From positions 58,208-82,207 of the forward strand of contig NZ_WBKO01000002.1 in assembly GCF_032842345.1 (NCBI RefSeq): a stretch of 24,000 bases of DNA, given 5' to 3'. The position numbers were made by a program, and so were the translations under genes. Shown here one piece after another: positions 10,155 through 14,041 of the stretch. This DNA comes from Methanoculleus caldifontis. GTDB lineage: Archaea; Halobacteriota; Methanomicrobia; Methanomicrobiales; Methanoculleaceae. Each line of letters begins with the position of its first letter. Within the stretch, counting starts at the first letter, position 1. The notes beneath the pieces are model-generated. The model was not told the DNA's origin. It did no database searches and saw only the letters and a program-made list of their open reading frames with translations.

Positions 10155-11072
10155 GTGACTTCGGCGGAGAACCGGTGCTCTCTCTGCGGCGAACCCGCGG
10201 TCGTCCGCCTCGCCGAGCCGGAGCGGCGGCTCTGCGCCGCCCACTTCATCGAGGACGCCGGGGCCCGCGTCTTCGCCGCCGTGAAGCACGAATGCATGAT
10301 ATCTTCGGGCGACCGGGTCGCCGTCGGCCTGAGCGGGGGGAAAGACAGCACCGCCCTGCTCCTGCTGCTCCACCCCATCCTCCCCGCACTCGGCGCGAGT
10401 CTCATTGCGGTCACCATCGACGAAGGGATCGCGGGCTACCGGGAGGAGACCCTCAAGGCCGCAGAATCCCTGACAGACGAACTCGGCGTCGAGCATGCGA
10501 TCGTCACGTTTACCGACCTCTTCGGGGACGATCTCGACAGGCTGCTCGTCGGAAGAGAACCGCAGGGCTGCACCGTCTGCGGCGTGCTGCGCAGGCGGGC
10601 GCTCGTCGAGGGGGTAAAGAGGGTCGGCGCGACGAAGCTTGCCACCGGCCATAACCTCGACGACGAGGCGCAGTCGGTCCTGATGAACGTCCTCCGCGGC
10701 GACCTCCCCCGCCTCCTCCAGGACACCTCAGCCGGCTATCCGGGTCACTTCGTCCCGCGGATAAAGCCGCTTGCCGTCCTCTCCGAGAAAGAGATCGTGA
10801 CCTACCTCCTCCTCCGCAGCTATTTCCGTGACCTGCCCGAGTGCCCCTACGCCGGGACCGCGCTCCGGTCGGAGGTGCGATCGATGCTTGCCGGGCTCGA
10901 GCACCGCCACCCGGGGACGATGCTCCGCCTGATGCGGTTCCGCGATGGGGTCAGGCGTTCGGCCTGCCCTGCGGAGCCGGCGAAGGCGCTCTCTACCTGC
11001 CGGATCTGCGGCGAACTTGCGAGCGGCGAGGTTTGCCAGGTCTGCAGGCTGCTCGGGCGGGACGGAAAGTAG
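10155..11072 (+). CDS. TtuA/Ncs6(Ctu1)-type tRNA 2-thiolation PP-loop ATPase
   Basis: N-terminal Zn finger CSLCGEP...LCAAH, PP-loop VGLSGGKDSTALL, cluster ligands GCTVCGVLRR and PECPY, KLATGHNLDDEAQ, C-terminal Zn finger CRICGELASGEVCQVC. GTG start lies 4 nt after the carrier gene. Confidence 0.85.
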   Translation: MTSAENRCSLCGEPAVVRLAEPERRLCAAHFIEDAGARVFAAVKHECMISSGDRVAVGLSGGKDSTALLLLLHPILPALGASLIAVTIDEGIAGYREETLKAAESLTDELGVEHAIVTFTDLFGDDLDRLLVGREPQGCTVCGVLRRRALVEGVKRVGATKLATGHNLDDEAQSVLMNVLRGDLPRLLQDTSAGYPGHFVPRIKPLAVLSEKEIVTYLLLRSYFRDLPECPYAGTALRSEVRSMLAGLEHRHPGTMLRLMRFRDGVRRSACPAEPAKALSTCRICGELASGEVCQVCRLLGRDGK

Positions 11073-11078
11073 CGGGTC

Positions 11079-11390
11079 TCACCGGTCGCCGCCGCAGCAG
11101 GACCCCTCATCTCCCCCGCAGCCGCAGGTGCCGCTGTCCATCTCCTTACCCCGGAGGGCCGCCCCGATCATCGCCCAGGCGCACCCGACCCCGCTCTGGA
11201 CCTCGATGGCCTGCACCGGGCAATTCCTGGCGCACGCCCCGCACTCCATGCACTCCTCCGGCCGGACGACCTCGACCCGCCGGTTCCCCTCTGCAAAGAC
11301 CCCGTGCGGGCAGACCTCGGTGCACCGCAGGCAGCCGAAACACCGCTCCGGGTTGTAGCGGAGGGTGTTCTCGCGGTAGGAGTCAAACAT
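11079..11390 (-). CDS. hgcB: HgcB, 2x[4Fe-4S] ferredoxin of the mercury methylation pair
   Basis: Last 103 codons of listed ORF 11079-12416. CFGCLRCTEVCP and CMECGACARNCP ferredoxin motifs plus the C-terminal Cys-rich tail (GTCGCGGDEGSCCGG). Its ATG shares one base with the hgcA TGA (TGATG). Confidence 0.85.
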   Translation of the reverse strand: MFDSYRENTLRYNPERCFGCLRCTEVCPHGVFAEGNRRVEVVRPEECMECGACARNCPVQAIEVQSGVGCAWAMIGAALRGKEMDSGTCGCGGDEGSCCGGDR

Positions 11391-12436
11391 CAGACCGCCC
11401 CCAGAAGGCGGGCCACCCCGAGGACGGCGGCAAGGACGGCTCCCAGGACCGCCATCCCGGCCATGAACGGCACGTAGCGGAAGATCTCCTTCTTCACGCC
11501 GGTCCGCGACGTGAACGGGGTCGAACCGGTGAAGTTGAGCGCGAGGTACGCGGTCACGGGGGGCATGAGGAGGAGAGGTGCGAGCGCGGCAGGGACGCCT
11601 GCCCACCCGGACGCGGCAGTCTCCATGAAGAAGGTGGCCGAGAAGGGAAGAGCGACGATTCCGCCCAGAATGAGCCCTTTCGTGCTGAAGTCCCGGGTGG
11701 GGATGAACGGCAACAGGGCCGGGAAGAGCACCGTTCCGGCAAGGACCGCGGAGATTGCCCCGAGCGCTGCCGGCAGGCCTGCAAGGAGGTAAAGGACGAT
11801 CGCGCCTGCAGCGGTCGGAAGCGCGGCGTGGACGAGCTCCATCGGCGCGAGCACGAGCCGGTCGACGACCGGGAAGCGGACGCGCCGCATATCGGGCGTC
11901 GCTCGCCCGATGGCGAGATACTCCGGGAGGTCGCTTGCCCGCACGGGCCCGTACTCCACGCTGAATCCCGAACGCCGCAGCACTTCGTGGGCAGAGACGC
12001 CCGGGGCGCCGAGCTGCGGGACGATGAGCGTCCGGTGCCGCACGACGGACGCGAGACCCGTGAGCGCTATCCTCCGGACGATCTCGTCGGTGCCGAAGGT
12101 CCCCTTCCCTGCAGCGCACCAGACGTTGATCCCGTGCGTGTCGAGCACAAGGATGTAGCCGTCGTGGCCGGAGAGGGCGGACCGGAGCGCATCGAAACTC
12201 AAGGTGTAGTTTGAGGAGGCAAAGACCGGCGAGTCGGGCGTGGGGTTCCCGAGCCGGTAGAGCCCGGGCTCCACGCGGTGCCCCATCCGATTTACTCCCC
12301 AGCGCGCGAGGAAGTGATCGAGGTGGTTGGCGGGCGTGATCCTGCTGTCTGTCGTTCGGATCTCCTGCACCGGTTCGGCGGCCGGCTGAACGGTCTCCGG
12401 ACAGGACCGGCAGCACGACTGCGGCGGGGATGCCAT
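11390..12436 (-). CDS. hgcA: HgcA, corrinoid protein of mercury methylation (N-terminal CFeSP-like domain + C-terminal membrane domain)
   Basis: Diagnostic cap-helix motif GINVWCAAGKGTFGT. Upstream VEPGLYRLGNPTPDSPVFASSNYTLSFDALR. C-terminal ~4-5 hydrophobic helices. I prefer ATG 12436 (GGAG upstream); ATG 12454 is an alternative. Confidence 0.9.
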   Translation of the reverse strand: MASPPQSCCRSCPETVQPAAEPVQEIRTTDSRITPANHLDHFLARWGVNRMGHRVEPGLYRLGNPTPDSPVFASSNYTLSFDALRSALSGHDGYILVLDTHGINVWCAAGKGTFGTDEIVRRIALTGLASVVRHRTLIVPQLGAPGVSAHEVLRRSGFSVEYGPVRASDLPEYLAIGRATPDMRRVRFPVVDRLVLAPMELVHAALPTAAGAIVLYLLAGLPAALGAISAVLAGTVLFPALLPFIPTRDFSTKGLILGGIVALPFSATFFMETAASGWAGVPAALAPLLLMPPVTAYLALNFTGSTPFTSRTGVKKEIFRYVPFMAGMAVLGAVLAAVLGVARLLGAV

Positions 12437-12440
12437 GACC

Positions 12441-12743
12441 TCACTCCGCCTCATCGATCAGCGGCCCGAGGACGCTCTTGACCATCCCGCTGAGGCTCCC
12501 GGCCTTCATCAGCGCAAGGCAGCAGACCTCGCCGTCCCGCTCCCAGGTGATCAGCGCCAGCTTGTCGCCCGGTCGGATCCCTGCCTTTTCCCGCACGTCT
12601 TTCGGCAGGACCATCTGCCCGCGTTCGTCCACGCTGAGCACCGCCTCCACGCTGCAGACGGCAACCTGGTTGCACCCGCACGGCGTTCCGCCGGGCGGGC
12701 ACCGTTCCGGATTGGTGTTCTCTTCTGCCATAGTGTTCTTCAT
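12441..12743 (-). CDS. AbrB/SpoVT-type (looped-hinge helix) DNA-binding protein with an N-terminal Cys-rich motif
   Basis: GQMVLPKDVREKAGIRPGDKLAL is a typical SpoVT/AbrB core. N-terminal CPPGGTPCGCNQVAVC and a later CC pair. ATG 12743 lies ~25 nt downstream of a TATA-like CTATAAAT (12771-12764, minus), which implies a leaderless mRNA. The stop lies 4 nt before hgcA ATG 12436. Confidence 0.7.
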   Translation of the reverse strand: MKNTMAEENTNPERCPPGGTPCGCNQVAVCSVEAVLSVDERGQMVLPKDVREKAGIRPGDKLALITWERDGEVCCLALMKAGSLSGMVKSVLGPLIDEAE

Positions 12744-12780
12744 ACTATGGTTGAGAGGGGAGGATTTATAGTTATCCAAA

Positions 12781-12800
12781 TTTTCAGATTAATCTGAAAA
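12781..12800. promoter_or_regulatory. Perfect 20-bp palindrome TTTTCAGATTAATCTGAAAA upstream of the AbrB-like/hgcAB promoter
   Basis: Read directly. It lies ~10 nt upstream of the TATA-like element and ~47 nt upstream of ATG 12743. It could instead (or also) be an AU-rich terminator hairpin for the upstream RNA. Confidence 0.5.
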
Positions 12801-12815
12801 TTCAAAATTTTTGTT

Positions 12816-13265
12816 GTGATCCCCGAAGCCCGGTTCCGGTGGCTGTCGAGAAGGCGGCGCCGCAGCTCCCCGGTAGAGGGCTGCAGAGCAGGTAATTTAG
12901 CCCTGTTGAAATGCTCCAAATAACCTCTGGATAGCATGAGTACCAATAGGGGCTGGCGGTGTGGCCTCGCGCGAAGCGAGTTTGAGCACCGTCAGGTGTG
13001 AGTCGCGAAGTCTGGATGGGTATTGATAGTCTCCTTCGCGTTCGTCGCGGCTTCGCGTGGGGTAGCTGGTGCAGATGGCGATACAGCCTCACGCGAAGAG
13101 CGCGAAGCCGCGAAGTGCGATGGTCCGAAGGGCCGGAGCTCGAGCACCGTTAGGTGCGAAGTGCGAGCGTAAGCGAGCTTGAGAGGCCTCAAGGCTTCGA
13201 AGGGAAGTCAAGCGGTTTGACCTCCAGAGGGGCTTCCTCGGAACTTTAGCGAAGTACCGGGTCAC
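12816..13265 (-). ncRNA. Large structured RNA candidate with RNase P RNA-like architecture (assignment tentative)
   Basis: A ~450-nt stretch with no credible ORF in an otherwise packed region. On the minus strand: terminal helix GUGA-CCC (13265-13259) with GGG-A-UCAC (12824-12816). Hairpin 13258-13240, then GAGGAAGCCCC (13239-13229), whose GAAGCCC pairs with GGGCUUC (12831-12825) inside ACCGGAACCGGGCUUC (compare CR-V ACAGAACCCGGCUUA). CCUCUGG (13230-13224) pairs with CCAGAGG (12930-12924). GGAGCA...AGGGCUAAAU lies at 12917-12891. A 9-bp hairpin at 13225-13203 has a G.U on minus that would be A.C on plus. U-runs follow the 3' end. The canonical GGAAAGUCC with bulged U is not cleanly present. 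Confidence 0.4.
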
Positions 13266-14041
13266 TCGCCGGCGGACGGCGGCGAAGCGCCGCGGACCCG
13301 CCCCCACCCGGTATAGACGTTCATCTTTTTGCTCCGCACGAACCCGATAACGGTGAGCCCGCCTGCCTCCGCGGCCTCGACGGCGGTGGTGGTCGTCGCC
13401 CCCCGCGAGACGATCACCGGGATGTTCGCCACCAGGCACTTCCTGACCATCTCGGAGGATATCCGGCCGGAGCTGACCGCAAACGTCCGTGAAAAGTCGA
13501 TCCCTTCGAGGAGGCCGTGGCCGACGACCCGGTCGAGGGCGTTGTGCCGACCGATATCCTCGGCGATCCGGATTGCCTTCCCTTCTCCCTCGAAGAGCCC
13601 GACGAGGTGGATGCCGCCGGTGATCCGGTGCAGATCCGAGTCGAGCGTCTCTTTCGTCGCCGCCCGGATCGCCTCGGGCGCGAGGACGAGGTCGGACCGG
13701 ATCGCGGGGAGCCGTCCGGTATCAAGGAACGAGGTGCTCCCGCCGCACCCGGAGAGGACGGTCTTGTGCGAGGTCAGGATCGCGAACGGGTTCTTCGTGA
13801 GGACGCTCGCGGTGTTCCCCTCGATGCGGATCGACTCGATCTCGCGGAGTTCCTTGACGATCCGCTCCGTGTAGAGGAACCCCACGACGAACTCCCGGAG
13901 CATCGCCGGGCTCGTCATGGCGGTGAGGGCGTGGCGCCCGTTGACGGTCACGGAGAGGGGCATCTCCTCCACGACAGGGTGGGTTGCGGGAACGAACGTC
14001 TCCCCGTCGCCTTTGACGATCGGCAGTTCCCGGTAGAGCAT
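13262..14041 (-). CDS. fdhD: FdhD-family sulfurtransferase (sulfuration of Mo/W-bisPGD cofactor)
   Basis: Last 259 codons of listed ORF 13262-14617. VLSGCGGS, ITGGIHLVGLF, EDIGRHNALDRVVG (family signature), SGRISSEMVRKC. Its ATG 14041 shares one base with the upstream TGA (TGATG). Confidence 0.85.
   Translation of the reverse strand: MLYRELPIVKGDGETFVPATHPVVEEMPLSVTVNGRHALTAMTSPAMLREFVVGFLYTERIVKELREIESIRIEGNTASVLTKNPFAILTSHKTVLSGCGGSTSFLDTGRLPAIRSDLVLAPEAIRAATKETLDSDLHRITGGIHLVGLFEGEGKAIRIAEDIGRHNALDRVVGHGLLEGIDFSRTFAVSSGRISSEMVRKCLVANIPVIVSRGATTTTAVEAAEAGGLTVIGFVRSKKMNVYTGWGRVRGASPPSAGE

Follow-up and report, generated by a model that had tools for sequence, protein, structure and literature searches.

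The AbrB-type gene hgcC heads the predicted mercury-methylation operon of Methanoculleus caldifontis and encodes a candidate metal(loid)-responsive autorepressor

The 24,000-nucleotide (nt) stretch of Methanoculleus caldifontis DNA analysed here (assembly GCF_032842345.1, contig NZ_WBKO01000002.1, positions 58,208 to 82,207; hereafter the window, numbered from its first letter) carries the mercury-methylation genes hgcA and hgcB and, directly ahead of them, a small gene, hgcC, encoding a cysteine-rich protein of the AbrB/SpoVT type. All three are arranged in tandem on the minus strand, with a TATA box and a perfect palindrome ahead of them. About 90 related loci were compared in all, and the comparison reveals a phased array of short DNA pentamers that accompanies hgcC and hgcC-like genes across Archaea and Bacteria. 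The genes and their junction are as follows.

11079–11390, minus strand: hgcB, mercury-methylation ferredoxin of 103 amino acids (aa), with matches to NF040864 and Fer4 Pfam models
11390–12436, minus strand: hgcA, corrinoid mercury-methylation protein of 348 aa, with matches to NF040863 and PF03599 (CdhD)
12437–12447, minus strand: hgcC-hgcA junction, read directly from the sequence
12441–12731, minus strand: hgcC, 96 aa, with matches to NF040962, TIGR01439 and PF04014

HgcA scored 448.1 bits on NF040863 (cutoff 275), with profile positions 2–322 of 325 aligned. Its translation contains HGINVWCAAGKGTF and the cap-helix motif GINVWCAAGKGTF, which fits N(V/I)WCA(A/G)GK with the cobalt-ligating cysteine, and its C-terminal half is hydrophobic. 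HgcB scored 118.6 bits on NF040864 (cutoff 99) and bears two CX2CX2CX3CP motifs, CFGCLRCTEVCP and CMECGACARNCP, together with a C-terminal SCCGG that supplies a vicinal cysteine pair. The initial annotation, made from the letters alone, was correct in calling hgcAB: both proteins exceed the curated NCBIfam cutoffs, and every sequence motif that it quoted is present. The hgcA stop and hgcB start codons overlap in TGATG. The hgcC gene stops at TGA 12443–12441, and only 4 nt, GGTC (12440–12437), separate this stop from the hgcA ATG at 12436; a Shine-Dalgarno (SD)-like GGAGTGAGG at 12447–12439 overlaps the hgcC stop codon ahead of hgcA. A scan of 10900–13400 for sigma-70 promoters and terminators gave no terminator-like or promoter-like site at this junction; its single terminator-like match, located within the end of hgcA, falls below shuffle expectation. 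Given the 4-nt gap and the absence of a predicted terminator, hgcC and hgcA are almost certainly co-transcribed, in agreement with the initial proposal for the small gene.

The HgcC protein scored 126.9 bits on the NCBIfam model NF040962, "HgcAB-associated protein HgcC" (cutoff 70), 39.3 bits on TIGR01439, the AbrB looped-hinge-helix model (cutoff 28.3), and 32.6 bits on PF04014 (cutoff 24.7). No ArsR-family match (PF01022 or NF033788) was obtained for HgcC at E ≤ 0.01; in a search of this type, a genuine ArsR in the Methanothrix locus L057 reached 105.7 bits. Among named relatives, the Methanoculleus chikugoensis HgcC is the nearest, with 91% identity. The open reading frame (ORF) had been given about 100 aa. 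The ORF itself stands and its start at ATG 12743 does not, since the family-consensus start, ATG 12731, yields 96 aa, whereas the in-frame upstream ATG 12743 yields 100 aa. A methionine is aligned to ATG 12731 in 114 of 121 aligned sequences, and M. chikugoensis has ACG at the position equivalent to 12743. The true hgcC start is probably ATG 12731, 12 nt downstream of the one first assigned.

An AbrB/SpoVT core combined with cysteines, as originally described for this protein, is supported by the TIGR01439 and PF04014 matches and by the conservation of the cysteines; CPPGGTPCGCNQVAVC and a CC pair are both present. The best sequence match in the Protein Data Bank is SpoVT-N (E ~1e-3). In an AlphaFold2 monomer model, the mean predicted local distance difference test (pLDDT) score was 63.8, with 75–83 in the core, and the expected secondary-structure elements (β-β-α-β-β) were present. 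The top Foldseek matches of the model were SpoVT, AbrB-N, C68 and Sso7c4, all weak (E ~0.02, template-modelling score 0.3–0.4). The fold evidence is modest and consistent with HgcC being an AbrB/SpoVT swapped-hairpin protein. Among 150 representatives of 50%-identity clusters, D35, R37, G38, Q39, P43, K44 and R47 are near-invariant, and these residues, the best conserved in the family, map to the loop and helix aligned to the DNA-contacting part of SpoVT/AbrB.

HgcC relatives are widespread. A word-indexed search returned 2026 cluster representatives at 90% identity (E ≤ 1e-3), an exhaustive search of the 50%-identity representatives gave 431 matches, 227 of them at E ≤ 1e-10, and relatives are present in at least 551 GTDB species genomes. 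Genome context was counted in the best 80 genome loci, four of which are cut by a contig end, leaving 76 evaluable. The order hgcC-hgcA-hgcB is found in 60 of the best 80, in Methanomicrobiales, Methanosarcinales, two Nitrospirota and one Actinomycetota; the suggestion that homologues might flank hgcAB in other archaea is borne out by this synteny. In another 16, the gene directly downstream encodes, instead of HgcA, a protein of ~276 aa identified as the arsenite methyltransferase ArsM (NF008823, 347–357 bits, cutoff 263). Hosts of these arsM-linked loci include Dehalococcoidia, Chloroflexota, Methanothrix, Latescibacterota, Nitrospirales and a Eubacteriales metagenome-assembled genome. No toxin gene lies next to an hgcC-like gene, the next gene being hgcAB (60) or arsM (16) in 76 of 76 evaluable loci. 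The arsM-linked loci are listed here.

Genome loci with arsM: L050, L053, L057, L060, L065, L067–L072, L074, L075, L077, L079 and L080
Metagenome loci with arsM: L088, L090, L141, L159 and L206

The arsM-linked proteins scored 122–129 bits on NF040962, like the window protein; the name HgcC and the model's "equivalog" label are therefore too narrow. The association with hgcAB in archaea holds, but the family is neither archaea-specific nor hgcAB-specific, as the arsM loci and the members in Chloroflexota and Dehalococcoidia attest. In a neighbor-joining tree, one clade contains bacterial and Methanothrix members that are mostly arsM-linked, with three hgcAB-linked members, and a second contains hgcAB-linked Methanomicrobia with one arsM-linked member, which suggests repeated exchange of the downstream cargo during the history of the family. 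Among more distant representatives (43–63% identity), hgcAB follows P0151, ArsM-type methyltransferases follow P0189 and P0217, an ACR3-type SBF transporter lying close to the second of these, P0143 is followed by a shorter methyltransferase, and P0164 is an orphan. In two Methanothrix loci (L057, 2542–4412; L075, 2532–4413), the hgcC-like-arsM pair stands beside a divergent ArsR, a permease (SO_0444/SaoE-like) and a thioredoxin-type ArsC, so that two regulator types coexist in one ars cluster.

Immediately upstream of hgcC, the window contains the following elements.

12806–12775, minus strand: operator array of four pentamers at 9-nt phase, assigned by cross-locus conservation
12806–12802, minus strand: operator unit TTTGA
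12797–12793, minus strand: operator unit TCAGA (strong)
12788–12784, minus strand: operator unit TCTGA (strong)
12779–12775, minus strand: operator unit TTGGA (degenerate)
12770–12764, minus strand: TATA box TATAAAT of the predicted hgcCAB promoter; ATAAAT is kept in Methanoculleus relatives
12779–12802, both strands: perfect 24-bp palindrome AATTTTCAGATTAATCTGAAAATT, containing the 20-bp core TTTTCAGATTAATCTGAAAA at 12781–12800

A TATA-like promoter beside a perfect 20-bp palindrome had been noted at this place. The promoter element reads TATAAAT, and the palindrome is indeed perfect; its length was underestimated, the symmetry extending from the 20-bp core to 24 bp. By itself the palindrome is only moderately unusual. 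An arm of 12 was the maximum in 200 first-order Markov simulations, arms of at least 10 arose in 19 of the 200, and the region has 22% GC compared with 66% for the window. The significance of the window motif comes from its conservation across loci. An inverted-repeat search upstream of 80 homologues repeatedly gave TCTGA or TCAGA, and TCWGA-N4-TCWGA (W, A or T) was for this reason chosen as the test pattern. The 24-kb window has a single occurrence of the pattern, which coincides with the palindrome, against 0.07 expected. In 61 of 78 loci the pattern lies in the 100 nt preceding the hgcC-like start; elsewhere in those loci it occurs five times in 654,616 nt, and two of these five are the same element where the start codon had been misplaced. 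The 17 loci without an exact operator have best matches of 8/10 (3 loci) or 9–10/10 (14 loci), mostly at the same distance, against a background of 0.05 per 170 nt for matches of at least 9/10. The operator is retained in divergent members with 49–63% identity (L086, L087, L091 and L092) and is found in Archaea and Bacteria, with hgcAB or arsM cargo alike.

The organisation of the array is also conserved. The spacers between units are AT-rich and 4 nt long, and a third unit upstream of the two strong ones reads T-Y-W-G-A (Y, C or T), with the G present in 57 of 63 motif-anchored loci. The central bases of the two strong units in these 63 loci are T,T in 45, T,A in 11, A,A in 6 and A,T in 1; the window has the A,T type found in a single locus, and the direct orientation is the commonest. 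Among three Methanoculleus relatives, the differences fall in the spacers (TTAA, TTTT, TGAT) and at the central W, with the four units and their phase retained. Judged from these alignments, the perfect palindrome is a rare inverted-orientation variant of the conserved operator, and selection acts on dyad-symmetric TCWGA pentamers at 9-bp phase, not on palindromy. The palindrome was accordingly rejected as the functional unit in favour of the phased pentamers; of the regulatory site first proposed here, the conserved cis-element survives and the palindromy itself, which is not conserved, does not.

The position of the array relative to the promoter was compared in both domains. In most archaeal loci, TATAAATA begins 4 nt past the last operator unit (TCTGA-AAAG-TATAAATA), and the last unit and its spacer occupy the position of the B-recognition element (BRE). 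In the window, the last unit, TTGGA, ends 4 nt before the TATA box and likewise falls at the BRE position. The array of bacteria, with Dehalococcoidia among them, starts right after a TATAAT -10 box (in Dehalococcoidia, TATAAT-...-TCAGT-N4-TCTGA-N4-TCTGA), and in L091 the operator comes after a complete promoter, TTGACA-17-TACAAT. The TATA position in the window predicts a transcription start near 12741–12745, close to the two in-frame ATGs (12731 and 12743) that are 12 nt apart; the hgcC mRNA may be leaderless from 12743 or have a ~10-nt leader without an SD sequence before 12731. Equivalents of the two-ATG arrangement were noted in L081 and L083, and the Methanoregula loci have leaders of ~18–20 nt with an SD-like AGGA.

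The reverse test was performed by scanning metagenome contigs for the 20-mer operator TTTTCWGAWWWWTCWGAAAA, which is present in at least 120 stretches. Among the matches listed, 10 of 120 have an hgcC-like gene 40–90 nt downstream, and wherever the contig extends beyond it, hgcA or arsM comes next. The other 110 listed lie mostly on AT-rich contigs with no recurrent neighbour, and many are inside ORFs; no extra regulon member is claimed for these reasons.

Operator-bearing promoters thus span both domains, both cargos and differing upstream genes, and their constant neighbour is hgcC only. Because the hgcC gene is the sole element common to all of them, we infer strongly that HgcC itself binds the array, and autoregulation is the simplest explanation. 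Supporting this, the near-invariance of the recognition surface (D35 to R47) matches the invariance of the pentamer. An orphan member of 78 aa on an unclassified metagenome contig (L086, 2250–2617) has no methylation gene downstream and carries three perfect TCAGA units at 9-bp phase ~100 nt upstream of its called start; this suggests that autoregulation is ancestral and independent of cargo.

HgcC is further distinguished by its cysteines, numbered here in the 96-aa protein starting from ATG 12731. Four lie in the N-terminal tail (C11, C18, C20 and C26), and the CC pair, C70-C71, is in strand β4. Across 121 sequences (120 close homologues and the query), cysteine is found at position 18 in 104, at 20 and 26 in 119 each, and at 70 and 71 in all 121. 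In a broader set of 151 (the 150 cluster representatives and the query), the counts are 107 for C26, 117 for C70 and 134 for C71; position 25 is also cysteine in 70, and more cysteines or a CC usually occur upstream. Among 79 locus-derived proteins, the β4 CC pair is present in 79, a cysteine before strand β1 (nine residues ahead of DERGQ) in 75, and at least two tail cysteines in 78, and the number and spacing of the tail cysteines vary (2–5). No clean cysteine signature separates the hgcAB-linked from the arsM-linked proteins among these 79. SpoVT and AbrB do not have the conserved cysteines of HgcC. At least three conserved cysteines per monomer, the count needed for a thiolate metal(loid) site, are present.

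Together these observations lead us to propose, with somewhat better than even confidence, that HgcC is an AbrB-fold autorepressor of the hgcCAB operon and a putative sensor of thiophilic metal(loid)s. The three genes would form one operon whose first gene encodes its own regulator. HgcC dimers, assembled as a tetramer or larger, would bind the TCWGA array immediately upstream of hgcC, with weaker TYWGA units flanking the strong ones, the units being 9 bp apart and separated by AT-rich 4-nt spacers. Each pentamer is itself a mini-palindrome, which would leave the orientation and the central W unconstrained and allow the window its perfect palindrome. Bound HgcC would then block TFB/TBP or RNA polymerase and repress hgcCAB (or hgcC-arsM); repression is suggested by position, since the archaeal arrays cover the BRE and the bacterial ones the transcription start. 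In the final step, the β4 CC pair, the cysteine before β1 and a tail cysteine would form a thiolate site for a soft metal(loid), whose binding would clamp the tail onto the barrel or the dimer interface, lower the DNA affinity and derepress the methylation genes. The ligand can be approached only by analogy: As(III) or methyl-As(III) is the most likely one, and Hg(II) is a possible second candidate. The arsenic species are placed first because of the arsM linkage, the three-cysteine sites of ArsR proteins, the arsenic response of the hgcAB regulator ArsR2 and the equivalent first-gene position of ArsR2 and HgcC.

Several observations weigh against this proposal. The N-terminal tail, which would supply part of the site, is predicted to be disordered (pLDDT below 50), and the AbrB DNA-contact residues R8, R15 and R24 align to L, Q and E in HgcC. 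The strong units in the window are 14 nt from the TATA box, compared with 4 nt in Methanoregula, and the BRE position is filled by the degenerate unit TTGGA only; at the window locus HgcC may instead be an activator acting from an upstream site, as Ptr2 or TFB-RF1 does. No ars or mer genes were found within the window. As(III) sensing might already be covered in Methanothrix by the ordinary ArsR that stands beside the hgcC-like-arsM pair. Finally, five to six cysteines could equally hold structural zinc or an iron-sulfur (Fe-S) cluster or act as a redox switch.

The last point underlies an alternative that we regard as unlikely but worth keeping in sight: HgcC would be an autoregulator whose cysteines sense redox state or oxygen through thiol-disulfide or Fe-S chemistry, or merely hold zinc, and the operon would answer to anoxia or redox or be buffered constitutively instead of responding to metal(loid)s. 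The conserved cysteines fit such chemistry. HgcA is a corrinoid protein and HgcB an Fe-S protein, both oxygen-sensitive, all hosts are anaerobes, and the window neighbours are sulfur and Fe-S trafficking genes. This alternative leaves arsM as the other cargo unexplained, as the two cargos share only the methylation of thiophilic metal(loid)s. The variable number and spacing of the tail cysteines would be unusual for a fixed Fe-S or zinc site, and a vicinal CC is a poor disulfide former and a classic As(III) ligand (PMC11868830).

It is less probable still that HgcC is an accessory protein or metallochaperone passing Hg(II) or As(III) to HgcB/HgcA or ArsM, its AbrB fold serving as a dimerisation scaffold with DNA binding secondary or absent. 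Such a role would suit the tight gene coupling, with its 4-nt gap to hgcA, the constant position of the family ahead of a methylating enzyme, and the cysteine-rich flexible tail, which resembles the C-terminal CC of HgcB and the N-terminal CC of ArsM. It would leave unexplained the phased operator that accompanies the gene across domains and cargos, and also the orphan L086, which has no enzyme gene yet retains three operator units. The strongest conservation, moreover, falls in the AbrB/SpoVT DNA-contacting loop and helix, and many confirmed methylators lack the gene (PMC10349881), so that it is dispensable for catalysis. A dual role as regulator and accessory protein is possible.

A PrlF/MazE-type antitoxin of a type II module, with hgcAB merely co-regulated, is the published interpretation of the gene (Zhang et al. 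2023, PMC10349881; PMC13362967), and PF04014 is indeed named MazE_antitoxin and many homologues are labelled "antitoxin PrlF" by JGI. We consider it very improbable, given a downstream gene that is hgcA or arsM in every evaluable locus, the 459 nt upstream of the window palindrome without a Pfam-positive ORF, a score far above the cutoff of the dedicated non-toxin-antitoxin family NF040962, and conserved cysteine clusters foreign to antitoxins. The toxin-antitoxin reading was rejected, as no MazF, YhaV, PIN or Doc toxin gene is adjacent in the evaluable loci. That the palindrome is a chance AT-rich feature or the terminator hairpin of an upstream RNA, unrelated to HgcC, is scarcely credible despite the AT-rich region and the frequency of long arms in simulation (about 10% for arms of at least 10), because the nearest upstream gene ends 459 nt away, upstream genes differ while the motif stays, the scan of 10900–13400 found no site at the palindrome, terminators included, and most orthologous sites are direct repeats incapable of forming a hairpin, which excludes a terminator-only palindrome.

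Between the palindrome and fdhD lies the following spacer.

12803–13261, no strand assigned: spacer between palindrome and fdhD, 459 nt, with no supported gene; 12803–12806 belong to the first operator unit

This spacer separates hgcC from fdhD and lies outside the hgcCAB system. Searches with Rfam at gathering thresholds and with ARAGORN over the whole window gave no match, nor did Rfam at E ≤ 1 on 12700–13300; there is accordingly no such known RNA whose terminator the palindrome could be. The small ORFs in the spacer gave no Pfam match. The corresponding gap in M. chikugoensis is ~194 nt, the window spacer being ~265 nt longer. The spacer is GC-rich and contains, especially at 12950–13170, imperfect direct repeats of 23–31 nt (12954/13076 and 12978/13136) and several CTTCGCG-type inverted repeats; the ~100 nt beside the operator are partly conserved in L083. 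More widely, hgcCAB stands amid sulfur, cysteine and Fe-S trafficking genes (94–20913): an O-acetylhomoserine sulfhydrylase, a hexapeptide/FeS-assembly protein, NadA, a radical SAM protein, SAMP2 with a TtuA-like PP-loop ATPase, FdhD, a class-V cysteine desulfurase, ThiF/UbaA, and a CBS-domain protein of alpha/beta-hydrolase fold, possibly a homoserine acetyltransferase. The order NAD synthase, desulfurase, FdhD, hgcCAB, TtuA, SAMP2 is common to the window and M. chikugoensis.

How hgcAB is controlled is a key unanswered question in the prediction of methylmercury output, and archaeal methylators can dominate in rice paddies and wetlands. To our knowledge, only one hgcAB regulator has been tested, ArsR2 of one Desulfovibrionaceae lineage. 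The present analysis replaces a vague "toxin-antitoxin gene next to hgcA" with a concrete model that has a defined protein, a defined 32-bp predicted operator (12806–12775) allowing single-base predictions, five candidate ligand cysteines and a specific class of candidate inducers. The alternation of hgcAB and arsM in Bacteria and Archaea is independent evidence, at the genome level, that mercury and arsenic methylation are linked in evolution and regulation. If the model is true, mercury methylation in methanogens would be an inducible response following the same logic as arsenic methylation, and the arsenic link of ArsR2 in Desulfovibrionaceae would be reinforced independently, on an unrelated fold. 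The HgcC family is a testable candidate switch for methylmercury production.

The bare association of hgcC with hgcAB is already known, and the family is catalogued but functionally uncharacterised. The initial annotation was wrong in implying that no AbrB-type candidate had been described at hgcAB: besides NF040962, Zhang et al. 2023 (ISME Commun, PMC10349881) reported an abrB/prlF/mazE-type gene directly upstream of archaeal hgcA. The gene was found on 14 of 35 contigs with hgcAB and, among 31 confirmed methylators, in 8, of which 6 are archaea. This gene, of the same family and in the same position as the window hgcC, was proposed there as a putative archaeal hgcAB regulator and read as a toxin-antitoxin component, a reading repeated in a 2026 paper (PMC13362967). 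PMC10349881 makes no mention of the cysteines, the operator or an association with arsM. We found no report of the name hgcC, its cysteines, its DNA site or the arsM link in a literature search that missed most subscription journals. NF040962 itself (short name near_HgcAB, an equivalog model), whose cutoff the window protein, encoded directly upstream of hgcAB, exceeds, is a context-based naming without an attached function and covers residues 30–98 only, omitting the N-terminal cysteine tail. Going beyond the descriptions that we could find are the lack of a toxin partner, the conserved cysteines, the TCWGA operator and the hgcAB/arsM alternation.

The proposed function of HgcC parallels that of ArsR2, an ArsR/SmtB-type protein of Pseudodesulfovibrio mercurii ND132, which is co-transcribed with hgcAB and controls its transcription (Gionfriddo et al. 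2023); upstream of hgcAB, it responds to arsenic (bioRxiv 10.1101/2022.10.17.512643). Like HgcC, ArsR2 is the product of the first gene of an hgcAB operon, and related ArsRs head arsR-arsM operons (PMC11868830). ArsR2 is a winged-helix protein, whereas HgcC would be a swapped-hairpin β-barrel, and we liken the two in function by inference only.

For the predicted DNA recognition, the counterpart is AbrB. Bacillus subtilis AbrB recognises bipartite sites of TGGNA pentamers, which may be direct, inverted or everted and have AT-rich spacers of 4–5 bp between them; higher oligomers occupy sites with multiple units (PMC3738160). By analogy, the predicted HgcC operator grammar matches these experimentally defined sites, and the N-domains of AbrB, Abh and SpoVT have the swapped-hairpin fold that is predicted for HgcC. 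AbrB is a global regulator of loose specificity with no ligand and no cysteine motif, in contrast to HgcC, which is apparently a local, highly specific autoregulator with the pentamer TCWGA and a cysteine tail. HgcC also has a short C-terminal helix where AbrB has its C-domain.

For the sensing site, the counterparts are the ArsR proteins and MerR, the latter a Hg(II) sensor with a thiolate three-cysteine site. As(III)-responsive ArsRs have three-cysteine sites, often with a vicinal pair or CxC, and head arsR-arsM operons; in types 1–4, CxC or vicinal CC combines with a distant cysteine, sometimes across the dimer, and the metal releases or remodels the DNA complex (PMC11868830). The cysteine set of HgcC is like these thiolate sites on a different scaffold, as a candidate site recognised from sequence alone. 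At least 12 structural families of metallosensors are distinguished in a 2024 survey in Chemical Reviews, and AbrB is not mentioned in the part of its text available to us. If sensing is confirmed, the AbrB type would be a new structural class; we tentatively suggest, at somewhat less than even confidence, that HgcC founds such a class of metal(loid)-sensing transcription factors, leaving its TCWGA operator when it binds As(III), methyl-As(III) or Hg(II) and thereby switching on HgcAB or ArsM.

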